This document shows, in pieces, positions 5,589-55,350 of a DNA stretch of 64,000 nt. Position numbers and translations under genes: made by a program. Origin of the DNA: a virus; IMG/VR virus record IMGVR_UViG_3300005841_000035, positions 7,487 to 71,486 of that record; one strand, given 5' to 3'. The notes beneath the pieces were generated by a model. It saw only the letters and a program-made list of their open reading frames with translations, was not told where the DNA came from and made no database searches. Position 1 is the first letter of the stretch; each line of letters begins with the position of its first letter.

Positions 5589-7601
5589 TCATGCGGCCCC
5601 CTTCGCCACCTCGGCTTTTAGCTCCGTGATAAAGTCAGAGCCCAATTGCCTATGGTATTTAAAGAGGATTCGCGCCCCCAGCGCGGCCTGCTTCTGCGTA
5701 ATGCTCGCGCGGTGCGCGAGGGCGTGCCCGATGCGAACGTCCACCGCAGCGAAGCCGACATCGTCGAGCTTGCGCGCGCCGTCGCACACGCCCGCGAGCG
5801 TTTTCATTCCGAGGTGAACCAGCTCCAGGCAGCGGTCCGTCACCAGCTTGGCCTCGGCAGCGATTTTTTCAAATGTCAGCCGCACATTGGTGATGGGCTC
5901 GACTTCTTCCACTTCGGCCTCGGCCCAGTCGGTGACCTTGTCCAAGCACGCGTCAATGACGCTCAACTTTTCCACGATGGTGCGGGACATATGCGCGTCA
6001 AGCGAGCCCTCGAGCACGAGATACGAGCAGAGCACGCTGTCCTTCTGGCCGATGCGGTGCGCGCGGTCCTCCATCTGCGCATGCTTGCCCGGCACCCATT
6101 GCATCTCGACGAAGATGACGTGCGCGCCGGCGGTCAGCGTGAGCCCTTCAGCCGCGGCAAGGTTGCCCACAAAAATATTGCACTCGCTGTCGTTCTGGAA
6201 GCGGTCCACCTGTTCCATCCGCTTCTGAGAGGGCGTCTCGCCCGTAATGACCGCCGCCTGGGGAAACTTCGCGACGATGCCGGCCACCACGTCCAGGTGA
6301 TGCGCGAACACCAGCACCTTGCCGGACTCCATCGCGTCTTCGATGAACGCGAGACATTGGGGCAATTTGGCCAGCGCGACCTTGTGCCGGATTTCCGCCA
6401 TGTCTTCGAACGCGGCGCCCTGCCCGCGGCGAAGCGCGTGGACGGCCTCAGCATACTCTTCGCGGGATTCGCCAGCGCGTGCCAGCTCGACACGCGCGCG
6501 CAATTCGACCAGCGCGGCCTCGCGTTCGGCCACCATTGATTCCTCGAGGGCTAGCAGCTCGCGGCTGCCGGCAGCGTCCAGCTCGATGACTTGGCGCTGC
6601 TTCGCGGGCAGCTCGGTCAGCACGTCCTTTTTCAAACGGCGCACCATAATGGTGGAGCGAAGCTTGTGCTGCAATTCGGCTTCGTTGCTGTGGCCAGAAA
6701 AGTCCCAGCCGAACCCGTTTTGCTTGGCGGCGCAATAGCGGCGCGCGAATTGAAAAAAGTTTGTCTTCGGCCAGCTCACCGGGTCCAGGTCATTCAGCAC
6801 GGGCCAGACTTCGATGGGACGGTTTTCGATGGGCGTTCCGGTCAGCGACACCTTGCGGGCCGCGCGCGTGGACAACGTCGCCTTGGTGCGGCGCGCCTTG
6901 GGGTTCTTGATATATTGCGATTCGTCGCACACGCGCAGGTCCCAGTTCCGGTTTTGAATGTCCGGCAAAAACTTGTGGATAGTATCGTAATTTACGATGA
7001 CGATGTCCGCGCGCGAAAAAGACTTGTTGGAGTATTGCACCTCGACGGTCATCGGGCGGGTGAGCCACTTTTTCAGCTCCCGCGCCCAGTTTAGCTTGAG
7101 GGTGTTCGGGCAAACGATTAAAACGGACTTGATGTCGGGCGTGATGTTAATGAGGCCGATTGCCTGGATGGTTTTGCCCAGGCCCATTTCGTCGCCGATG
7201 AGCGCGCCGCGGCCAGCGGCCCAGCAGCCTTGCGCGTAGGCCACGCCGGCACGCTGGTAAGGCAGGTAGTTCAGCCCGGCGGGGCGAGGGATGTCCAGAG
7301 ACGCATCCTGGGCGCGCGACGCCTCCACGGCCACGCTCCGCTTGGCTTGGTCCGCCTTGGCCGCGACCGGGTCCAGGTGCGCCCACCAGTTGACTATCCA
7401 GGCGCCGTCATTCTGGCGTTTGGGGGCGATGCCGGCGGCGCGCAGGGTTTCCTTGTTCTGCTTCCATGCCTCCCAGAAGGAAGCGGGAACAGTAAAGGAC
7501 GTGCGGAGGATTCGGTCGGTGCCGTCCTGCAAGCGCACCTTTTTCGGGGCGCCCCAGGGCAAGAGGGTTTCAATCTTAATTTCGGTGGATTCGTTGCTCA
7601 T
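5589..7601 (-). CDS. SNF2-family helicase (SMARCAL1/HARP-like)
   Basis: GDEMGLGKT, CDESQ, LTGTPIENRP, MVRRLKKDV, VLVFAHH, EGLTLT, QMEDRAHRIGQ; start MSNEST follows a promoter. Confidence 0.92.
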   Translation of the reverse strand: MSNESTEIKIETLLPWGAPKKVRLQDGTDRILRTSFTVPASFWEAWKQNKETLRAAGIAPKRQNDGAWIVNWWAHLDPVAAKADQAKRSVAVEASRAQDASLDIPRPAGLNYLPYQRAGVAYAQGCWAAGRGALIGDEMGLGKTIQAIGLINITPDIKSVLIVCPNTLKLNWARELKKWLTRPMTVEVQYSNKSFSRADIVIVNYDTIHKFLPDIQNRNWDLRVCDESQYIKNPKARRTKATLSTRAARKVSLTGTPIENRPIEVWPVLNDLDPVSWPKTNFFQFARRYCAAKQNGFGWDFSGHSNEAELQHKLRSTIMVRRLKKDVLTELPAKQRQVIELDAAGSRELLALEESMVAEREAALVELRARVELARAGESREEYAEAVHALRRGQGAAFEDMAEIRHKVALAKLPQCLAFIEDAMESGKVLVFAHHLDVVAGIVAKFPQAAVITGETPSQKRMEQVDRFQNDSECNIFVGNLAAAEGLTLTAGAHVIFVEMQWVPGKHAQMEDRAHRIGQKDSVLCSYLVLEGSLDAHMSRTIVEKLSVIDACLDKVTDWAEAEVEEVEPITNVRLTFEKIAAEAKLVTDRCLELVHLGMKTLAGVCDGARKLDDVGFAAVDVRIGHALAHRASITQKQAALGARILFKYHRQLGSDFITELKAEVAKGAA

Positions 7602-29352: not shown

Positions 29353-30044
29353 ACAAGTTGGTGGTGACCATTCATGGTTACGCTGGCGACGCCCATCAAA
29401 TCAACGACCTTCGACCGGTATACGAGCACCACAAGGCGCCAATCGTGGTGATGACGCCGGACGACTCCCGCATTGAATCGTTCGGTCCGCACATCTGCCG
29501 TTTCGGCGGCAAGCGGCAATACATCGGCGAGGACAGCCTTAAGCGGCAGGTCCGTCACTGGGAAATGATGCTCGATTTCAACGCGACCCATTTTCTGTCA
29601 AACGACTCCGATAGCTTTTGTCTGGCCCCGGAGCTTCCCGAGTATCTCTACAAGGAAGACGTGCTGTGGAGCAACGAGGTGTCCGACATGATGCACCTTC
29701 GCAAGCCGGAATACAAGTGGCCGCGCCTCGCGTTCCAGCCGCCATACTTTTGGTCGCGGGGAATTGTTGAGCGGTTGGTAAAGGCCGCGCCGCTGGTGAA
29801 GATTGACATGCAGACGCCCTTCATCGACTGGTTCGTGATGGCGGTCGCCGTCGCCGGCGGCATCCCGCACAAGTCATTTCCGGACGGGTTCAGTTGTGGG
29901 ACAGCCAATCCGCACGGCCTGAAGGTGATGACGGACCAAGTCTGGAGGCACGGGAAAATTTTTGTCCACGCGGTCAAGAATGCATCAATTCGCCGTCAGC
30001 TCGAATATGCGCGCGGGCAGTTTCTGAAGAGGAAAAGAAAATGA
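29349..30044 (+). CDS. Putative GT-A glycosyltransferase
   Basis: FLSNDSDSF DxD motif; operon context. Confidence 0.5.
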   Translation: MNKLVVTIHGYAGDAHQINDLRPVYEHHKAPIVVMTPDDSRIESFGPHICRFGGKRQYIGEDSLKRQVRHWEMMLDFNATHFLSNDSDSFCLAPELPEYLYKEDVLWSNEVSDMMHLRKPEYKWPRLAFQPPYFWSRGIVERLVKAAPLVKIDMQTPFIDWFVMAVAVAGGIPHKSFPDGFSCGTANPHGLKVMTDQVWRHGKIFVHAVKNASIRRQLEYARGQFLKRKRK

Positions 30045-30979
30045 ACAAGGACTCTGTAATTTATGTGGCCGGGCATCGTGGTCTTGTGGGTGACGCAATT
30101 ACGCGCCTGCTTCGCTCGCGCGGTCACACGCGCATCGTTACGGCTACGCGGGAGCAGGGCGACCTCACGGACCCGGTCTTCGTGAAGTGGTTCTTCTCCG
30201 TCTACAAGCCGGAGTATGTTTTTGTGGCGGCGGCGCACGTCGGGGGCATCCTGGCGAATGACCAGAACAAGGTGGACTTTATCACGAAGAACCTCGCCAT
30301 CCAAAACAACATCATCCTCAACGCCGCGGAGTATGGGACGAAAAAACTCCTGTTCCTCGGCAGCTCGTGCATCTACCCGCGTGACGCGGAGCAGCCCATC
30401 AAGCCCCAGGCGCTTTTGACCGGGCCATTCGAACCGACGACCGAGGCGTATGGAATTGCCAAGGTGGCCGGCATTCGGCTGTGCCAGTATCTGCGCGACG
30501 AGAAGGGTCTCAACTTCATCTGCGCGATGCCGTGCAATCTCTATGGCCCAGGCGACCGGTTCGACAGCGTTCGCTCGCACGTCGTCCCTGGTCTCATCAC
30601 GCGCATGCTCCACGCGAAAAAAATGGGGATGCCCGAGTTTGCGGTGTGGGGAGATGGCTCGGCCCAGCGCGAGCTTTTGTATGCGGACGACCTCGCCCGC
30701 GCGTGCTCGCTTTTGATGGACGAATACAACGGGCGCGAGGTGGTGAACACCGGCAGCAGTGACGAGTGGACCATCAAGGCCATCGCGGACGAGGTGCGCA
30801 AGGTGGTAGGATACACGGGCTACCTGCATTTCGATTCGGACAAGCCGACGGGCGTCCCCAGGAAGGTCCTGGACAACACCGTCATTCGGTCGCTCGGGTG
30901 GTCGCCGCAGATGCCGTTTCCCGAGGGGCTTCAGAAGACCGTTACGGCGTATCGCCAACGGCTGTCGATTCTTCGTTGA
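30041..30979 (+). CDS. fcl: GDP-L-fucose synthase (epimerase/reductase)
   Basis: IYVAGHRGLVG, AAAHVGGI, FLGSSCIYP, YGIAK, MPCNLYGP, SHVVPGL. Confidence 0.93.
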   Translation: MNKDSVIYVAGHRGLVGDAITRLLRSRGHTRIVTATREQGDLTDPVFVKWFFSVYKPEYVFVAAAHVGGILANDQNKVDFITKNLAIQNNIILNAAEYGTKKLLFLGSSCIYPRDAEQPIKPQALLTGPFEPTTEAYGIAKVAGIRLCQYLRDEKGLNFICAMPCNLYGPGDRFDSVRSHVVPGLITRMLHAKKMGMPEFAVWGDGSAQRELLYADDLARACSLLMDEYNGREVVNTGSSDEWTIKAIADEVRKVVGYTGYLHFDSDKPTGVPRKVLDNTVIRSLGWSPQMPFPEGLQKTVTAYRQRLSILR

Positions 30980-44865: not shown

Positions 44866-45945
44866 ATGCCGCTCCAGAAAACTAATTTAGTCATCGTCGC
44901 GACACAGTTGCCGCCCGACTTCGAAGGGACGCCGCAGGAATACTTCGCGGCCATCCTCGAGCGGATGGACATCCAGTCCCCGGTCGGCACCAACTTTTTC
45001 GTCATCGGCGACGTGGAACCGGCCAGCAACTCCGGCCCGTGGTTCAAAAACGGAACGAAGTTGTATGTGTTCGACATCGACACGGGGCACTACGTCCCGC
45101 TGGACATCTCGGACTCTCTGTCGCAGTTTGCGTTCATCGGGCCGAACGACCCAGGCACCCCCGCCGCGGCGGACCCGCTCATCTGGTTCCGCACCGTCGG
45201 CAACCGGCCACTGGGCTGGTATGGCTGGGACGGGAATTCCTGGGACGCCGCCCCCGGCGTGCCGAACAGCGGCAACACGGCGAACCGCCCGACGAACCCG
45301 GCGGACCTCGAGCAATATTTTGACACGGACATTAACGTCCTGATTCACTGGGAACGCTCCGCTTGGCGCACGGTCTCCGGAACCCCCGGCGACGTGAAAG
45401 CGGTGACGGCGGACAACCTGACGCTGGCCCTGAACGCGAACCCTGGATGGTCGGTCCTCTTCGGCAACGACGAGAGCAAGCGCGGTCGCACCCTCGCCCA
45501 GGCTGCAAAAGACGCGGGCAGCTCCCCGGTCAACACGGTCTCCACGCCCGCCGGCGTCACGCAGCGCGCGGCAAATGAAACGTTCGGTGAAGAACTACAC
45601 GTTCTCGGGTCGCTGGAAGTCCAGCAGCACTCGCACCTGATTGGTCACGCGACCCTGCTCAACAGTGTGAACGCGAACGTGGTGTTGTTCCGCGTCGAGG
45701 ATGCCGACACTGAGATTTTGAACGCGGGCATCCCGAGCCCAACGCCGCCGAATTCGCAGACGATTCGCGCGACGCACTCGAACCCGAACGGAAGTCAGAC
45801 TGGCGTAAGCCTGGGCTCGACTGGAACGCAGTTGGTGACGAGCAAGCAGTTCACCATCGAAGACGCGCCCAGCTACACAACTGCGGCGACGGGTCACAAT
45901 ACGGTTCAACCGACGGTTTGGTTATGGCACTTAGTCAAAGACTAG
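44866..45945 (+). CDS. Tail fibre / collar-domain protein
   Basis: PGDVK..GW, GEELHVL...QHSH, HNTVQP. Confidence 0.7.
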   Translation: MPLQKTNLVIVATQLPPDFEGTPQEYFAAILERMDIQSPVGTNFFVIGDVEPASNSGPWFKNGTKLYVFDIDTGHYVPLDISDSLSQFAFIGPNDPGTPAAADPLIWFRTVGNRPLGWYGWDGNSWDAAPGVPNSGNTANRPTNPADLEQYFDTDINVLIHWERSAWRTVSGTPGDVKAVTADNLTLALNANPGWSVLFGNDESKRGRTLAQAAKDAGSSPVNTVSTPAGVTQRAANETFGEELHVLGSLEVQQHSHLIGHATLLNSVNANVVLFRVEDADTEILNAGIPSPTPPNSQTIRATHSNPNGSQTGVSLGSTGTQLVTSKQFTIEDAPSYTTAATGHNTVQPTVWLWHLVKD

Positions 45946-46388
45946 ATTTGGTGGAAGCCCGGTCACACGGGCTGAAACACCTGCGCGCTCTGTTCGCGAG
46001 ATACTTCGACGACGTGAAGTATCCCGGAACGTTCGACATGGCGGCGCTGGAGAGCGTATGGGCGCCGCTGCTTGACCGCGGTGTCGCGACAATCCGCGTG
46101 CTGATGGTTGGCGGATATACGGTCGGAGTTTATGGCGTGACCTACATGCAGGACACGTTCAACGGCGAGATGACTGGGACGATGGTTTTCCTTTGGGTGG
46201 ACCCACAGGTCCGCGGGCAGGGTTTTGGAAAAGCTATGTTGAAGCAGGCCGAGCGGGATTCCCGCGCGCACGGATGCACCAACCTCGTGCATGGTCATAT
46301 GTTTTCCGTCGATAAGGACGGTGGACGCGGGATGTTTGAGAAGCAAGGCTACGAAGTAGTCGAGCTTGGTTTCAGGAAACGACTATAA
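45918..46388 (+). CDS. GNAT acetyltransferase
   Basis: LWVDPQVRGQGFGKAML, FEKQGY; start codon uncertain. Confidence 0.8.
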   Translation: MVMALSQRLDLVEARSHGLKHLRALFARYFDDVKYPGTFDMAALESVWAPLLDRGVATIRVLMVGGYTVGVYGVTYMQDTFNGEMTGTMVFLWVDPQVRGQGFGKAMLKQAERDSRAHGCTNLVHGHMFSVDKDGGRGMFEKQGYEVVELGFRKRL

Positions 46389-46391
46389 TTT

Positions 46392-47633
46392 ATGGGTGCA
46401 ATCATTGGAACAGCGGCGTCCATCGCCGAACGCTTCACTGACGAGAAGGCGATGAAAGAGGCGTATGCCGCCCAACGTAACGGCATCGTCGCCCAGCGCA
46501 AAGCCTTGACCGAGGACTACGACCTGTCGCGCATCACCTTGTTGACACAACAATACGACAAGGGTTACCTCGACCGCCGTGTCGCGCTTCAGAAAGAATA
46601 CGAGCCCGAGATGTATGCCGCCGGCCAGCAGGCCCGCCGGGATATCCTGGCCCAGTCGCAGACCCCCGTCTCCGGACTCGAATCGACTCGCGTGGCCGGT
46701 CAGCTTTTTAAGGAAAACATCGACAAGAATCCCGAGCTGGACCGGCTCCAGAAGAATGTCATCGCGCGAGCGAACGACGTGCTCTCGATGGGCGGCTCGC
46801 TGCCTGCGGAGTATCAGGCCGAGCTGGTGCGCGCTGGCGTTGGCCAAGCGGCCCAGGCGGGAATCAAGCCCACCGAGCGGTCGGTTGGCGGCGTGATGTC
46901 CAAGGTCCTCGGTAGCGAGGGCGAAAAACTTCGGCAGTCCCGCTCACTCGAAGCGGCCAAGCTCTCGGACACCGCGCAGAGTTTGCAGGAGTCCCGCGCG
47001 AAGATTCTGTCCTCGATTTTTCCGACGATTCAGTCGTCCGAGCGCGAAGGTCTGGCTCGTTCGGCCGCGATTTTCAATCTGGCCAACACGACCGAAGCGG
47101 GCACGGGCACCGGGCTCACGGGCCGCGAAGTTTTGAACCTGGACCTCGGCGCGCGACAAGCGCAACGGGAACTCGGTCAACAGAAGGCGAACTTGGACGC
47201 GTGGCGCGCGCTGGAGTTTGCGCGCATCCGCGACACCGCCCTTAATCAATCCGCCGGCAATTGGGGCGGGCAAGCGCAGGGCGCCTACGGTGGCGGCGGC
47301 GGACAAAGCGGTGGCGGGTCGTCCATGTCAATGGGCGCGATGTCCATGTTGTCCGACAAGAACGCCAAGGAAAACATCGAGCCCGTGGACGAGAAGAAAA
47401 TTTTGGAGAAGGTCGAGAAGCTCAACGTCTCGAACTGGGACTACAAGGAAGGCGTCAAGGACGTCCCCAAGGGCCGGCATACCGGTCCGATGGCCCAGGA
47501 TTGGGACAAGCTTTTCGGTTCAGGCGAGGGTGATGCCACGACCATCCCCGTCGTTGACGCAATCGGTGTGGCTCTGGCCAGTGTCAAAGCTCTGGTCCAG
47601 GAAATCAAACAACTGAAGCACGCGAGGGCGTAA
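46392..47633 (+). CDS. Ejection protein with C-terminal peptidase S74-like chaperone domain
   Basis: Gln/Ala-rich helical body; SDKNAKENI..WDYK..GPMAQD..ASVKAL. Confidence 0.75.
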   Translation: MGAIIGTAASIAERFTDEKAMKEAYAAQRNGIVAQRKALTEDYDLSRITLLTQQYDKGYLDRRVALQKEYEPEMYAAGQQARRDILAQSQTPVSGLESTRVAGQLFKENIDKNPELDRLQKNVIARANDVLSMGGSLPAEYQAELVRAGVGQAAQAGIKPTERSVGGVMSKVLGSEGEKLRQSRSLEAAKLSDTAQSLQESRAKILSSIFPTIQSSEREGLARSAAIFNLANTTEAGTGTGLTGREVLNLDLGARQAQRELGQQKANLDAWRALEFARIRDTALNQSAGNWGGQAQGAYGGGGGQSGGGSSMSMGAMSMLSDKNAKENIEPVDEKKILEKVEKLNVSNWDYKEGVKDVPKGRHTGPMAQDWDKLFGSGEGDATTIPVVDAIGVALASVKALVQEIKQLKHARA

Positions 47634-49215: not shown

Positions 49216-52200
49216 ATGCCCGTTCTGGAGGATATCGCCAAAGGCGAACAGTTCACGGATATCCCTGTCAACCCCGCGCCGGTGGCGGTTCCAGGTGGGA
49301 CGATGGTTCCGTCTACGGACCCCCGAAAGCTGACCCCGGAAGCGTTGCAGGCCGCGCGCGACGAGATGCGAAAAGCATTTTCTGCGAAGGGAATTCCTGG
49401 CCCGCCGTTGGCGCCCGGTGAAAAGCCGCCGGCTCCGGCGGACCCGTTTGCTGCCGAGCAGCAGGCCGATAAGTTTTCTGGCGAGCAGGAGGTTGCAGAC
49501 CCCTTCAAGGGCCAACGGCAGGCTGACGCGCTCGACGAACGCACGCCGCAGGATTTGGCGCGCGACCCGAATTTTAAGATTCACGATTTCATTCACGCGA
49601 ACAAGGACAACATCTTCAGCGACCCGAAGCGGTATCAGAAGGCGCTGGATACTTATCGCGAGGCACAGGCTGAGGGGGTCACGCTTAAAAAGACCGTGGC
49701 GTCTGTCAAGAAGGACACCTTGCCGCTTCTGAAGGACATCGTTAAGTCGATTCCAAAACGGTTGGAGAACATTAGCGACATCGCGGTGGCCCCTCTGGTG
49801 GACGCTGTCACGGAGAAATTCCGAGGCGAGCGGTTGGACCCTGAGAAGCACGCTCAATGGGAGAACATGACCGAGGATGCCAAGGAAGCGGCAATCGCTG
49901 AAGCAATCGCGGGCACGCAGACCGCCGTTGGGTCGCTCCAGGACATGGTGCGACAAGGGACCCGAAAGCTGGTCGGTCCCGCCTTTGAATTCGGAGGCAA
50001 AAAAGACTGGCGAAAAATTTCTGACGATGAACTCAAGAACGAGCTGTTCAAAGATATCGGCTGGCGCGAAACCGTCGAAGGTCTCGCGACCGGCGAAGGC
50101 GTCAAAGACCTCGTTGACAAAGGTGTCGAACTCAACCCGGAAAACATCAAGCTACTGAGTCTCACGGACCCCATCACGCTCGTCGCCACTGGCGTAGGCT
50201 TGAAGGGCGTGACGCTGGGCGGTCGCGTGATTTTTACCGCGGTCAACGATGCCGGCGCCCAGGCGGCTCTGGGTTACCTCGGCCGCGCGGCTGGACAAGC
50301 TGCGGCCAAGGGCGCGGCGGTCGCTGGACGTGGTGCCGAGGTCGCCGGACAAGTTGCCGGGCGCGCGGTGAGCGTTCCTTACTTGACCGCGGCTGGTCTT
50401 GCTTCCGGAAACTTTTTCAAGGCGCTGGCGGCTGCCGGCGTTGGAAAGGCTGCGGCCAAAGTTATCGAGAAAGGCGGGCAACTCTTGCGTGAGGTGGGTG
50501 AAGCCGGTATGGCTGGTGGACAGTCCGAAGGAAAGCAGTTGCTGCTCGGTCTGGAAAACACGACTGGCGCGAAAGTTCTTAATGCGGCCAAGACCGTCGG
50601 AAGCGTTGTTAAACCGCCCGTGGTAGGCGCACTTGAAGGTGCAGCGGCGACCGCTCCACTTGCCTTCGCCACCGATGAACCGCAAGGTGGCATCCTTGGT
50701 GTCGGCGCAGTGGGCGGCGCCGTTCATGGAACCGTGCGCGGGGTAAAAGGCGCGGTGGCCGAGGCCGGCGCCAAGCGGTATTTTGACCCTGGCCAAATTA
50801 CCTGGGAGAAAACCGAGTCCCCCGGTTACGACAACTTTTCGTCGATGAACGCGGTCCACGAGCAGGCATCCGCCAACGCTCCGGAAAACGCGCGTAACAT
50901 GGTGAACAGTTTGAGGGAAACGCTGCGGCCGTTCGGTCGCAAGCTTTTCTTGGTGGACGACGCCGCGTATCAAAAGGCCATCGAGAACGACACGGTGCGC
51001 GCGAATGGCGGTCAGCCGCTGACGCCTGAGCAGGCGGCTGCGGTAGCCGAGGAAGCCAAGACTCGCGGCATCTCGAAAATTTACATGGCCGATGACGCCG
51101 GCGGCGGTGAGATGGTCACGCTGGTTAAAGCAGCCGAAGACGCGCCGCATGAGGTCTCCCATGTTTTGGAGTCCGTCATGGCGCCCGACGCGCGAAAATC
51201 TTTGCACGACGCAGTGCGCGAGGCTTACTCTGGCGACGAGCTGCAACAGCTCAAGGAACACTACGAGTCCCAGCTCAACCGGAAGATGACGCCGGACGAA
51301 GTCGAAAGCGAATTCATCGCGGACAACTGGGCGAACCTTTTGTATAACACCTCGCTCGAGTCGTTGGGGCTTCCTGCCCCGCGCCGAGGGTTCAAGCAGG
51401 TGTTACTCGATGCGTCTCTGGCCTTGGGCAACGCGCTGGGCGTTGACATGACCGCCGGGCGTAAAACTCCTGGCCTGGACATCAAGCCCTCCTACTCTCT
51501 GCGCAAGCGGCTCGTCGAGGCATCCGGGGATATTTTAAGTGAGCGGGAAAATCTCGCTGCGCAGCAGGCCACCGCTCCCGAGGTGAAGCCGGCGGTCCCG
51601 GAAGCCAAGGCTGAGGGTCCCGTCGAGGTGAAGCCCGCCGAGCCGCCGTCGGAGACCAAGGTGCAGGTTCCCGTCGAATCGGCACAACCAGAATTTAATT
51701 TCGAACCGCCGGCCACACCTGAAGCGGCCCCGGCTGCGCCCCCTCCCGCGCCGGCACCCGTGGAAGGTCAGCCGGCGGTTCGTTCAGATAAGTCGGCCAA
51801 GCGCGCTGAGGTGACCAACACCGGCGTGGCGATGAAGTGGGCCGAGGACAAAGGTAATCGTGCCGTGGTGGACACGGTCAACCAAGCGATGGACGAAAAG
51901 GTCGGCCTGCGTGTCGAACACTCTGGCGCACCTACCGAGACTTTTAAACCGACGGAGCCTGAGCGCGAAGCTGAAATTGAAGCTGGCCGAGGGCTGCCGC
52001 CGGAAATGCGCGAGCAACACTCGAAAGAGATGCGTCCAACGCGTTGGGAGACGATGAAGTCCGGCGAGCCTCAGCTCATCGCGCGCAGCACCGACAAAGT
52101 TTTGGCCAACGTGGACCGCGCCGTGCAGTGGGCGAAAAAAGCCGGCGAGGAAGTTCCCTGGGAGACCGATGCCTCTGGGGCACTGACCCAGGCGGGCGCA

Positions 52201-55200
52201 GACCAGCTTTTGGCGGACCTTAACACCTATTGGGATAACCAGGACCGCGGCTTCCGTGGCGGCGGCGAGAAGCTCGTGCGGCCTGCCGAAGAACTGGGAG
52301 CGTCGATTCCAGCCGAGCAGGGCGAAGGCGTTTCGCTGGGCACTGCAAAAGAGCAGTGGCTCAATCTTCTCCAAGGCAAGGAGACCGGGCCACCGGTCAC
52401 CGCGCGCGCTGGAAAGGGTCTGCCGGCCAACATCAAGGCGCAGGAGATTCGCGCGGCCCAGGGGCTGGAAAGCGAACGCATCGCCGGCGGCGTGAACATT
52501 CCCGTTTACCCGGAGAAGGTCACCAAGGGCCGCGGCGCTGTCGAGGTCAAGGAAACCAATCCTCTGCGTAATCGATTACGCGCTGCCGGCATGCCGGTGG
52601 GAGACCTGCACACTGTTGTCGAGCGGCTCAACGCCACTGACTTGATTGGCGCCGAACGCCGGCCTGAACTCACGGGCCGCGGTGGCTCGACCGACATCAC
52701 CCGCGCCGGGTTCCTCACGGAGAAGCCCGTGAACGAAACCATCAGCGACGTGGTCAAAGCGTCCCCCGAAGAATGGCAACAATTTTTCGGCCCCAAGGGA
52801 ACGCTTACCGGAACGGCTTTTGAGCTGGGTCTCGGGTTGAAAAATCCTGCGGACCTTCGCGCGCTCATGGATGCCCAGGAGGCCGCGGCCAAGACCGCCC
52901 AGGCGTCGATGGCCGAAGTGCGTGCTGGAAACTTCGACGCTCTGGACCGTGCGTCCGCCGACGCCACCAAGGCACAATTTTTCCGCGAAGCGGTCGAGGC
53001 CGCTACGGATACGGGCTCCGCTGCCGGCCCCGCCGGTTGGCGCCGCATGCGTCCGGAAAGCAAACCGCCCTTTGCCACGCCTGAGTCTCGCAAGGGATTC
53101 CTGACGGAAGAAAAACCGAGCGAAGGACCGGACCCAATCGTTACGGCGTCCATCCGCACGAAGGGCGGGCAGGTGTTCACCGGCTCGTGGCACGGGGACG
53201 CGCTCGACCACTTTTACGAAGCGGCGCGCAAGGGCGAGGTCAAAGACTTGCCCGAAGGCGTGAACCTGACGGACCCAGACCCCTCAGGTTTGTATTCGTC
53301 CGGGTATCTGACCGACGGATTCAATACAAAATCCAAGAAGTTTTTAGACCGCGCCCAGGCGCTGGAGCACTCCGTCAAAATCGGCCAGTTTGAACCTGCG
53401 GAGCGCGGCAACGTCGCGCGCACGGGTGAACTCGAGGCGAATGAGTTTGAAGGACGCCGGGGATTCCTGTCCCAGGAGAAAATGAAGGACGCTCTCGAAG
53501 CCGTCAAGAGCGGCGAGAAGTTTGGCGAGACTTTTGAGCCAGACGGGTCGGTCGCGGACATTGCCGGCAAGCCGCTGCACATCGTCACGCTCGCCAGCAA
53601 GAACATTCCGCGTGACCAACTGTCCGCGGAGCGGGTCGCTGCGGTGGTGAAATACTATCAGGGCGTTTTGGAAGGCGTGCCGGAAGCCAAAATCGGCGTG
53701 TTCAATCTGGAGACCAAAGGTCCGAATGGCGAGCCGATGACCTCGATTGACCTGAACGTGGCCGTGGACAAAAAGCACAGCAAGAACACGCTCGCGTTCG
53801 CCGAAAAAAATAACCAGGAAGCCGTTTGGGATGCCGAGGCCGGCGAAGTTGTGGACACGGGTGGCTCCGGACACACGCCCTTGCGAAGCCCTCAGGACAC
53901 CCTGAAGGCCGCACGCAAACTTGTCGAAGGAAAGATGCCGGACTTCGTCAAGGAGAAGGGTCCGAGTCTTTTGCAGCGGGTGATGCAGCGCGAGCCAGAA
54001 CGAATGGAAGTGCGCGAGGCCGCGCGTGAAGAGGTCCGGCGCAATGAGCAAGAGCGCGAGGATTGGAACCGCAGCGAACAGCAGTCCTTGTCTGAGCAAC
54101 GCGGCGGTTACCTGACCAAGGAAGAAGCCAAGGTCGCTAACGTCACGCAGAAAAAGAAACCCGGCACTCCGGAATACAACGACTACGTCACGAACAAAAT
54201 CGAGAAGTCCAAAGCTTTTCCTGAGGCACACCAGTTGGAATTCCAGAAGGACGAGAAGGGGAACTACATGGCCCAGTGGGACGGTGAGCCCCTTCCTGTC
54301 AATCGGCCCTACGACCTGTTCAACTCGGACCTCGCAAAGAGAGCCGGCTCGAAAGAGGCGTATCGCAAGGCGCTGGCCGACAAAATCGACGCCGCGTATG
54401 AAGAGGCGAAGAAGAACCCCGACGTGCATGCTGGGGAGACTTGGTATTCTGAGTATCGCCAGAAGGCCCAGAAACTTTTGGGCGATGACATGCAGCTTTT
54501 TGCTGAGTTATTGGGCGCCACCTCACCGCAACAGTTGGTCGGTCCGAACTTCAAGGACGCGCTCGCCGCCTACAACGAATTCAAGAAGGGTTCTTATGAC
54601 GCGATGCTGCGGAAATATCAGGAAGGCAAGCAGAAGTTTGCCGCCGGCGACATTTCCGATTACATGGAGACCAAGCTGCGCGAGAAACAAGAACGCCTAG
54701 TCGCGAAGCGGGACGCGGGCAAGCTCACCGAGGCCGAATTCGCTGCGCAAGAGGCCAAGAACAAAAAGAAGGGCATCGCCGAGCCCAGCCTCCGGGAATA
54801 TTTGGGTTGGTGGCAGGAGTCCAACAACCTTATCCCGACGAAGTCCACCGGGAAAAAGTTCGGCATGAACTCGCGCGCAGTTTTGCGCGTGCTGGACCGC
54901 TCGTGGTTGCAAAGCGTCGAGGGACCCAAGACGCCGAACTTCACCGGCAACCTTTCGGGTGCGTCTTTTAAGGCGACCATCGACGTGTGGGCGATGCGGT
55001 TGCTGCATCGCCTGTCCAACGAACAATCCGGCAAGCCGTGGCGCATTCAGTCCGCCAACGAGACCGGTATCGCGGACCCGGAGTTTTTCTTTGGCCAGGA
55101 CGCCATGCAGGACGTCGCCGACAAGCACGGCATCCAGGCGGACGCGTTGCAGGCCATCCTGTGGTTCGCTGAAAAAGACCATTACGAGAAGCAGGGCTGG

Positions 55201-55350
55201 ATTAAGTCCGCCGGCAAGGAGAAGTCCGACTACAATTCGCTCATCGCGAAAACGACCAAGACCCCCGAGGGCCACCTCTCGCTCAAAGAGGTTGAAAAAA
55301 AGCCAAAGGGTGGTAGAGTCAAGCAATTAGTATTACCAGAAATGCCATGA
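49216..55350 (+). CDS. Large multi-domain (polyvalent-type) ejection protein
   Basis: 2044 aa; Gly/Ala membrane-like region, HEVSH metallopeptidase motif, several C-terminal modules. Confidence 0.8.
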   Translation: MPVLEDIAKGEQFTDIPVNPAPVAVPGGTMVPSTDPRKLTPEALQAARDEMRKAFSAKGIPGPPLAPGEKPPAPADPFAAEQQADKFSGEQEVADPFKGQRQADALDERTPQDLARDPNFKIHDFIHANKDNIFSDPKRYQKALDTYREAQAEGVTLKKTVASVKKDTLPLLKDIVKSIPKRLENISDIAVAPLVDAVTEKFRGERLDPEKHAQWENMTEDAKEAAIAEAIAGTQTAVGSLQDMVRQGTRKLVGPAFEFGGKKDWRKISDDELKNELFKDIGWRETVEGLATGEGVKDLVDKGVELNPENIKLLSLTDPITLVATGVGLKGVTLGGRVIFTAVNDAGAQAALGYLGRAAGQAAAKGAAVAGRGAEVAGQVAGRAVSVPYLTAAGLASGNFFKALAAAGVGKAAAKVIEKGGQLLREVGEAGMAGGQSEGKQLLLGLENTTGAKVLNAAKTVGSVVKPPVVGALEGAAATAPLAFATDEPQGGILGVGAVGGAVHGTVRGVKGAVAEAGAKRYFDPGQITWEKTESPGYDNFSSMNAVHEQASANAPENARNMVNSLRETLRPFGRKLFLVDDAAYQKAIENDTVRANGGQPLTPEQAAAVAEEAKTRGISKIYMADDAGGGEMVTLVKAAEDAPHEVSHVLESVMAPDARKSLHDAVREAYSGDELQQLKEHYESQLNRKMTPDEVESEFIADNWANLLYNTSLESLGLPAPRRGFKQVLLDASLALGNALGVDMTAGRKTPGLDIKPSYSLRKRLVEASGDILSERENLAAQQATAPEVKPAVPEAKAEGPVEVKPAEPPSETKVQVPVESAQPEFNFEPPATPEAAPAAPPPAPAPVEGQPAVRSDKSAKRAEVTNTGVAMKWAEDKGNRAVVDTVNQAMDEKVGLRVEHSGAPTETFKPTEPEREAEIEAGRGLPPEMREQHSKEMRPTRWETMKSGEPQLIARSTDKVLANVDRAVQWAKKAGEEVPWETDASGALTQAGADQLLADLNTYWDNQDRGFRGGGEKLVRPAEELGASIPAEQGEGVSLGTAKEQWLNLLQGKETGPPVTARAGKGLPANIKAQEIRAAQGLESERIAGGVNIPVYPEKVTKGRGAVEVKETNPLRNRLRAAGMPVGDLHTVVERLNATDLIGAERRPELTGRGGSTDITRAGFLTEKPVNETISDVVKASPEEWQQFFGPKGTLTGTAFELGLGLKNPADLRALMDAQEAAAKTAQASMAEVRAGNFDALDRASADATKAQFFREAVEAATDTGSAAGPAGWRRMRPESKPPFATPESRKGFLTEEKPSEGPDPIVTASIRTKGGQVFTGSWHGDALDHFYEAARKGEVKDLPEGVNLTDPDPSGLYSSGYLTDGFNTKSKKFLDRAQALEHSVKIGQFEPAERGNVARTGELEANEFEGRRGFLSQEKMKDALEAVKSGEKFGETFEPDGSVADIAGKPLHIVTLASKNIPRDQLSAERVAAVVKYYQGVLEGVPEAKIGVFNLETKGPNGEPMTSIDLNVAVDKKHSKNTLAFAEKNNQEAVWDAEAGEVVDTGGSGHTPLRSPQDTLKAARKLVEGKMPDFVKEKGPSLLQRVMQREPERMEVREAAREEVRRNEQEREDWNRSEQQSLSEQRGGYLTKEEAKVANVTQKKKPGTPEYNDYVTNKIEKSKAFPEAHQLEFQKDEKGNYMAQWDGEPLPVNRPYDLFNSDLAKRAGSKEAYRKALADKIDAAYEEAKKNPDVHAGETWYSEYRQKAQKLLGDDMQLFAELLGATSPQQLVGPNFKDALAAYNEFKKGSYDAMLRKYQEGKQKFAAGDISDYMETKLREKQERLVAKRDAGKLTEAEFAAQEAKNKKKGIAEPSLREYLGWWQESNNLIPTKSTGKKFGMNSRAVLRVLDRSWLQSVEGPKTPNFTGNLSGASFKATIDVWAMRLLHRLSNEQSGKPWRIQSANETGIADPEFFFGQDAMQDVADKHGIQADALQAILWFAEKDHYEKQGWIKSAGKEKSDYNSLIAKTTKTPEGHLSLKEVEKKPKGGRVKQLVLPEMP

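Follow-up and report, generated by a model that had tools for sequence, protein, structure and literature searches.

The gene examined here lies in a 64,000-nucleotide stretch of viral DNA (the window; positions 7,487 to 71,486 of IMG/VR record IMGVR_UViG_3300005841_000035) taken from a virus genome of 71,486 bases with an estimated completeness of 98%. On the plus strand, 49216..55350 (stop codon included) is an open reading frame (ORF) of 2044 open codons which, judging by the ORF and by 105 related proteins, encodes a late polyvalent protein of 2044 aa, P0001. The C-terminal part of P0001 carries four copies of a short peptide, R-x-G-[FY]-L-[TS], all encoded on the plus strand: RAGFLT (junction motif 1, aa 1163-1168, 52702..52719), RKGFLT (motif 2, aa 1292-1297, 53089..53106), RRGFLS (motif 3, aa 1414-1419, 53455..53472) and RGGYLT (motif 4, aa 1629-1634, 54100..54117). 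They are spaced by 129, 122 and 215 aa, with 416 aa following motif 4; positions, sequences and spacings agreed exactly with the original prediction, which had been made from the DNA alone and had proposed that the motifs divide a self-processing polyprotein. Amino acid composition led us to expect 0.0035 copies in P0001, so a chance origin of the four was rejected, and a six-frame search of the window turned up the strict motif at these four sites and nowhere else. The looser pattern G[FY]L[TSP] had one extra copy in P0001 (SGYLTD, aa 1363), in a beta-strand within one of the modules (module 2), and three further matches in the window, in ORFs of 189-416 aa outside the Pfam and PHROG scans, one of which overlaps the P0001 gene in antisense.

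Two AlphaFold (AF2) models, covering aa 1-1185 and aa 1100-2044, predicted at least seven folded units in P0001. The borders of these units matched the motif positions, with the motifs in linkers between independent folded domains rather than inside them. Segments of the C-terminal model with predicted local confidence (pLDDT) below 50 included aa 1151-1168, 1294-1303, 1413-1419 and 1624-1645; motifs 1, 3 and 4 lay inside such segments and motif 2 at the edge of the linker aa 1294-1303, while the flanking domains reached pLDDT 85-95. In the N-terminal model motif 1 had a pLDDT of about 69-82 and formed the end of the preceding conserved domain. Across 36 aligned relatives G1165 of motif 1 was invariant and F1166 nearly so.

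P0001 can thus be described as a chassis of about 1160 residues, conserved in the family, followed by four cargo modules, each preceded by a short, predictedly disordered junction peptide. The chassis, encoded like the rest on the plus strand, begins with a helical region modelled at moderate confidence (aa 1-320, 49216..50175; AF2) and a Gly/Ala-rich hydrophobic stretch with pLDDT below 50 (aa 319-510, 50170..50745; sequence and AF2), which from its composition is possibly membrane-active, as in other ejection proteins, or flexible. A zincin-like domain with pLDDT of about 90 follows (aa 520-790, 50773..51585; AF2, alignments and the structure-comparison program VIA-align), then a Pro/Ala-rich disordered linker without a junction motif (aa 791-856, 51586..51783; sequence and AF2) and a conserved alpha/beta domain with a WYL/Sm-like beta-barrel and the motif E-T-N-P-L-R-N (aa 857-1162, 51784..52701; AF2 and VIA-align). 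Beyond junction 1, module 1 is helical and of no known family (aa 1172-1291, 52729..53088; AF2 and alignments), module 2 is alpha/beta (aa 1308-1403, 53137..53424; AF2, Atlas and alignment) and module 3 is alpha/beta, widespread and also found free-standing, with no Pfam family (aa 1420-1570, 53473..53925). A long charged single helix (aa 1593-1627, 53992..54096; AF2) precedes junction 4, and the protein closes with an all-alpha C-terminal module carrying DUF7178 and a fold resembling HhH-GPD glycosylases (aa 1652-2026, 54169..55293; Pfam and VIA-align). The strings which the original prediction had picked out as signs of independent domains, ASIR..G.VFTG..H in module 2 and NQEAVWD...TGGSG in module 3, were both present.

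A large protein collection held 105 members of this family, P0001 itself counted, 1147-3544 aa long and encoded on contigs mostly of 70-75 kilobases (kb). Their domains included ART-PolyVal, GNAT, radical-SAM, NAS-like, kinase-PolyVal, zeta-toxin, LPD22 and LPD38. We place P0001 in the polyvalent-protein class, in line with the original prediction, on the strength of the ART-PolyVal, GNAT, radical-SAM, kinase-PolyVal, zeta-toxin and LPD38 domains found among its relatives. The position of its gene among late and virion genes, another mark of polyvalent proteins, is indicated by collagen-like fibre genes and a fibre gene with an S74 chaperone domain directly upstream.

Judged from the sequences of these relatives, R-x-G-[FY]-L-[TS] is a local lineage dialect of a family-wide F-x-P junction signal: the general signal recurred in homologues throughout the family, and the strict form that had been proposed did not. 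Module borders of distant relatives carried RAGFLP, KFLPE, SFSPAT, GFSVSD, AGFQP, AGFMP and similar peptides. The middle residue varied by lineage (L, S, Q, M, K, E or A) and was uniform within one protein, and the same short site stood at every domain border, in P0001 within disordered linkers. Between lineages the type shifted jointly at all junctions (at least 26 changes on trees), and it was avoided elsewhere. Each protein was assigned a type from the tripeptide that aligns with F1166, the homologous first junction. Downstream of that junction, 146 proteins (those with at least 300 aa beyond it) held 446 copies of their own type, against 29.3 expected by composition and 29.7 +/- 5.8 for foreign types (maximum 47 in 1000 draws); 131 of the 146 had at least one such copy and 81 at least three. 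In the chassis of 147 proteins (those with at least 600 aa upstream of junction 1; 167,753 aa together) the own type occurred twice, where composition predicted 22.7 and foreign types gave 14.1 +/- 3.5 (minimum 4 in 1000 draws). Over 46 loci and the window (47 sources), own-type copies numbered 0 in the chassis (54,065 aa), 102 in cargo (44,832 aa) and 28 in other ORFs (175,378 aa), with a density of 2.28 per 1000 aa in cargo compared to 0.16 in other ORFs. The junction signal is shared across the group rather than being an oddity of this one phage.

Homologues swapped, gained and lost modules at the motif, as the original prediction had asked to be checked. Within aa 1100-1700 of P0001, 104 of 192 internal BLAST alignment ends fell within 15 aa of a motif, compared to 21% if ends were spread uniformly. 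Family-wide the figure was 28,164 of 62,640 ends (45%, versus 14% if uniform), with an excess in all 104 proteins that entered the comparison (from 134 queries, with at least three sites and at least 10 ends required and high-scoring segment pairs above 90% identity skipped). One relative, P0003, corresponds to P0001 without module 2, and the crossover lies within the R-x-G-F-L core; in another, P0005, a NAS-like domain is placed after the same junction. Junction 2 of P0005 (aa 1279-1284) reads RKGMLT, with Met replacing the otherwise constant aromatic residue. P0001 is itself a mosaic: its C-terminal module was 59-62% identical to those of FS[VP]-type proteins (P0011-P0027) whose chassis were only 28-39% identical, and about 35% identical to those of its closest chassis relatives (P0003 and P0005-P0007; chassis 59-83%). 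Homologous C-terminal modules, about 60% identical, were preceded by YLT in P0001 and P0002, by FS[VAM] in P0011-P0027 and by FLP in the P0009 group. As the same module is preceded by different types in different proteins, the motif follows the host protein and not the module. The family has hundreds of members, the module region by itself drawing matches from 254 representatives at 50% identity. Module 3 also has free-standing homologues (148-265 aa; HMMER search of representatives), with N-termini corresponding to aa 1413-1422, on motif 3, and the 10 inspected all lacked a junction motif. This, together with the differing types in front of one module, led us to reject the motif as a part of the modules themselves.

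The motif also appeared to be maintained as a peptide. Synonymous codons varied among the four copies in P0001 (GGG/GGA/GGA/GGT; CTC/CTG; ACG/ACG/TCC/ACC), and in 17 of the 46 loci, picked to cover the motif types, copies within one gene used varied codons, including both CTN and TTR for Leu and both TCN and AGC for Ser. Since codons differ between copies, selection acts on the peptide, and a DNA-level signal or gene conversion was rejected on the same grounds.

The one protease-like element found in our search was the zincin-like domain. HEVSH (aa 645-649, 51148-51162, + strand) and SEFIAD (aa 698-703), both named in the original prediction, were present. In the AF2 model HEVSH sits in a helix (640-653) and E699 (51310-51312, + strand) in a later one (693-711), with strands at 576-579, 619-625 and 631-637. 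The order of secondary-structure elements, an HExxH helix after a three-stranded sheet and a Glu ligand on a later helix, agrees with the description of the zincin core given by Iyer et al. (PMC5512222). H645, H649 and E699 were invariant in 36 relatives, and the predicted metal-site signature H-[ED]-x-x-H...E was kept in 137 of 149 relatives, so that the conservation expected of a zincin held across the family. The active-site quartet read H-E-H-E in 112 of the 149 domains, H-D-H-E in 25 and otherwise in 12. Structural comparison of aa 533-787 by VIA-align gave the N-domain of Certhrax (Z 6.9, root-mean-square deviation (rmsd) 4.2, 169 aligned), PPEP-2 (Z 6.3, rmsd 3.9, 154 aligned of 185), PPEP-3 (Z 6.0, rmsd 4.2, 164 aligned) and the catalytic domain of lethal factor (Z 5.7, rmsd 4.6, 162 aligned).

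From these observations we postulate that a cognate protease, its specificity co-evolved with the junction peptides, cuts at them, and that this protease is most probably the zincin-like domain of P0001 itself. P0001 would be packaged and ejected, and once it had been assembled or delivered, cutting would release each module as a protein of its own. This zincin group prefers a hydrophobic residue or Pro at P1', and by analogy the scissile bond may lie just before the Phe. Substrate recognition by PPEPs extends over six residues (P3-P3'), Pro being a key determinant and the subsites being specific to each paralogue, and the same source groups PPEP-1, PPEP-2 and PPEP-3 with anthrax lethal factor as related zincins (PMC12828418); a Pro-containing six-residue site is therefore plausible for such an enzyme. 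Cutting of the motifs by the embedded zincin is the account we favour, tentatively and at somewhat less than even confidence; the cleavage signal proposed in the original prediction is thereby the reading with the best support. Slightly more tentative still is its extension to the family, in which each lineage would have a private protease-and-site code (F-L-P, F-S-V/P, F-Q-P, F-M-P, F-K-P, F-E-P, [FY]-L-T and others), with a co-evolving zincin resembling PPEPs and lethal factor cutting the injected polyprotein of which it is part at each border between cassettes.

Several results weigh against cutting by the embedded zincin. The 25 of 149 relatives with Asp in place of the general-base Glu hold the most motif copies (mean 5.0), which means that Asp is sufficient or else that the motif has a reader other than the zincin; these H-D-x-x-H carriers include P0009, P0010, P0012, P0014, P0016-P0019, P0029 and P0044, and among the 20 that could be typed 19 were FLP and one FRP. 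Membership of the zincins, drawn from the motif and weak fold matches to a model, is itself weakly founded: according to VIA-align, Z scores of 5.7-6.9 lie in a band attributable to a common arrangement. No curated zincin profile matched, Pfam on the whole of P0001 giving DUF7178 as its sole match (PF23802, aa 1897-1985, E 8.1e-11, 42.6 bits, above the gathering cut-off of 27). A Pfam search with 20 members of the zincin-like domain gave nothing consistent (one Peptidase_M13 match, E 0.0086), and a PDB profile search with the domain returned annexins only, at E>0.5. Foldseek with both AF2 models against the PDB found nothing at E<=0.001, zincins included, in fold searches run with long models rather than single domains, which weakens domain-level matches. 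Trees tied the motif type to no particular domain (26 changes for the zincin-like domain, 29 for the WYL-like domain and 32 for the C-terminal module, over 107 tips), and covariation of alignment columns with motif type was equal (0.303 versus 0.301). Likewise, the closest pairs with different middle residues, 68% identical in the zincin-like and 69% in the WYL-like domain, did not discriminate. Complex prediction for the zincin-like domain with the junction-2 peptide (aa 1278-1312), run without controls, gave no answer (score 0.03) and counts neither for nor against cutting. The strict motif occurred in 6 of the 104 other relatives, and motif counts were taken over related proteins and are thus non-independent events. 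P0001, whose cleavage is a prediction, had no match among 50,697 phage records, and no cultured relative was found.

The persistence of the largest motif arrays alongside an Asp active site would suit a motif that is read and not cut, acting as a short linear docking or handling signal on a chain that stays intact. Such a signal might bind a groove of the chassis, or the capsid interior or portal for packing, or might offer a pause or handle as the chain unfolds and passes along the tail. Enrichment in cargo, concerted change between lineages and avoidance elsewhere fit any co-evolving reader, and motif 1 directly adjoins the C-terminal end of the WYL-like domain, where its Gly is invariant and the N-terminal model is comparatively confident. 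The polyvalent-protein survey also states that N4 virion RNA polymerase, ArdC and TraC1 travel uncut although they carry metallopeptidase domains (Iyer et al., PMC5512222). However, pLDDT is below 50 at motifs 2-4, so that AF2 predicts no docking in cis, and free-standing module-3 homologues that start at the site of the motif and lack it fit release better than tethering. We regard docking as unlikely, if less so than the remaining alternatives. The same Asp clade, together with the weak zincin assignment, would also be accommodated if the motifs were cut by another enzyme, either a phage maturation protease that escapes recognition or a protease of the host encountered after delivery. Most structural genes lack a recognisable family (18 of 20 scanned ORFs of the window had no Pfam match), and a protease could therefore hide among them. 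Yet within this nearly complete genome no S78, ClpP or S49 prohead protease was matched (a search for S77 was uninformative, as its controls matched nowhere), and confinement of the strict motif to one gene is unlike prohead processing of the T4 or phiKZ type, while a host protease would leave the private middle residue of each phage lineage unexplained. Cutting by an enzyme other than the zincin seems improbable. Finally, the motifs could be passive linkers or recombination joints, a shared border sequence that promotes cassette exchange and whose copies are homogenised, with no reader at the protein level. Exchange of modules at the motif, and the P0003 deletion with its crossover inside the motif core, are what such joints would produce, but the copies share at most 8-9 identical bases and differ synonymously, even between the codon families of Leu (CTN/TTR) and Ser (TCN/AGC). 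This model does not predict avoidance of the own type in the chassis, and the motif type in front of homologous modules differs from lineage to lineage. We consider it the least probable of the explanations.

The arrangement invites comparison with known systems. RNA-virus polyproteins are cut by a cognate protease with its own site code, and P0001 resembles them in its short linker sites, one type at every junction, lineage-varying, with a candidate protease inside the polyprotein. It differs in belonging to a DNA phage, in being putatively virion-associated rather than a replicase, in having a metalloprotease as the candidate enzyme and in that cleavage is predicted here. In T4 (gp21) and phiKZ (gp175) a prohead protease releases or trims injected head proteins at short motifs; the same sites also occur in capsid and scaffold proteins, and the head module has a dedicated protease gene. 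Short candidate cleavage motifs in a putative head-internal protein are shared with these phages, whereas here the strict motif is confined to one gene and an S78, ClpP or S49 protease was not found. As in PPEPs and lethal factor, the modelled HExxH helix of the zincin-like domain divides two subdomains, but there is no sequence-level relation, the motif is F-x-P and not P-P, and the match may reflect a common arrangement.

Closer to P0001 are the phage-type polyvalent proteins with a zincin-like metallopeptidase hub described by Iyer, Burroughs, Anand, de Souza and Aravind (J Bacteriol 2017; PMC5512222), whose main text proposes that the embedded peptidase releases domains, likening this to RNA-virus polyproteins. 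P0001 is likewise a giant late-gene protein of unrelated domains with an embedded HExxH...E domain. Unlike that set, its family has a concrete, lineage-specific junction peptide at every module border that is avoided elsewhere, and its zincin-like domain matches no Pfam model. In the main text of PMC5512222, to which our search was confined, the word 'linker' occurs 0 times and 'cleavage site' in the reference list only. A wider search of literature on proteolysis, linkers and cleavage sites of polyvalent proteins, again with supplements outside its scope, found no description of a junction motif, and 'DUF7178' returned 0 papers. Polyvalent proteins and their proposed self-processing are thus already known, and a junction code is not described in the searchable literature. 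A second giant polyvalent protein with LPD and metallopeptidase domains, the 2811-aa gp47 of phi24B, has been detected in virions by mass spectrometry, was unseen in the cryo-EM map and is proposed to be an ejection protein; the accessible text of the preprint reports neither a junction motif nor processing (bioRxiv 10.64898/2026.04.10.717836). Giant size, a polyvalent make-up and a metallopeptidase domain, putative in P0001, are common to both by description; we treat gp47 as a precedent by analogy and not as evidence for P0001.

In the WYL-like region (aa 870-1160) nine chains reached Z>=8 (8.5-10.2) by VIA-align, all of them WYL proteins, including PafBC (Z 10.2, rmsd 2.5, 91 aligned), BrxR (Z 9.1), CapW (Z 9.1) and DriD (Z 8.8). 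These matches align about 82-94 of some 300 residues, and the next unrelated row had Z 6.9. E-T-N-P-L-R-N (aa 1113-1119, 52552-52572) lies about 50 aa before junction 1 and is invariant or nearly so: its residues E, N, P, L, R and N were invariant in 29 aligned sequences, and in 36 sequences E1113, N1115 and P1116 were invariant and R1118 nearly so. The invariant Asn-Pro is reminiscent of Asn-Pro self-cleaving sites such as NPTH of FlhB/YscU. The C-terminal module resembled HhH-GPD glycosylases by VIA-align (Z 6.1-8.4), with 3n0u (Z 8.4, rmsd 4.4, 184 aligned), ROS1 (Z 7.4), OGG1 (Z 7.1), DUF2419 (Z 6.9) and EndoIII (Z 6.5) among the matches. Searches of the phage records gave weak matches only, to parts of this module (E 0.07-0.7), and a weak tblastn match (E 0.1) hit a Rhodococcus phage Shagrat gene whose annotation is 'DNA glycosylase'.

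Module 3 has free-standing homologues; the original suggestion that module 2 resembles small stand-alone phage proteins persists as a lead. Module 2 had an Atlas feature score of 0.85 (189 shared features) with clusters of 82-97 aa phage proteins of the T4_Y16D family, a lead only; PF26092 (T4_Y16D) is among the precomputed matches of relatives, and our own Pfam search found no match of PF26092 to P0001 or its module 2. Word-index searches for free-standing modules 1-3, and for module 2 alone, found none. We also looked for neighbour genes fused into relatives, and for modules encoded outside the big gene, and found none. PDB profile searches with sequence profiles of parts of P0001 gave nothing useful, and among PHROGs phrog_3842 was the sole match.

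Upstream of P0001, the product of 46392-47633 resembles fibre proteins and carries an intramolecular-chaperone domain, Peptidase_S74, at its C-terminus (Pfam, E 2.7e-13), the one protease-related match in a Pfam scan of 20 ORFs of the window. A small acetyltransferase gene (45918-46388, phrog_1249) lies before it. Further upstream, an NAD-dependent epimerase/dehydratase (29894-30979, E 6.7e-56) is encoded within the structural gene block.

On the prevailing view, phages and plasmids deliver their batteries of anti-defence enzymes chiefly through polyvalent proteins, and the idea that an embedded peptidase cuts them has stood since 2017; the P0001 family gives exact candidate sites. If the motifs are cut as we postulate, they would show for the first time, site by site, where the polyvalent-protein processing predicted in that year takes place, and any effector flanked by a lineage's own junction peptide would be pluggable and releasable. 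The different middle residues of the lineages amount to a built-in specificity experiment in a family with hundreds of members. The junction motif also suggests a rule by which module borders, and hence new effector domains, may be found in the giant proteins of uncultured phages.

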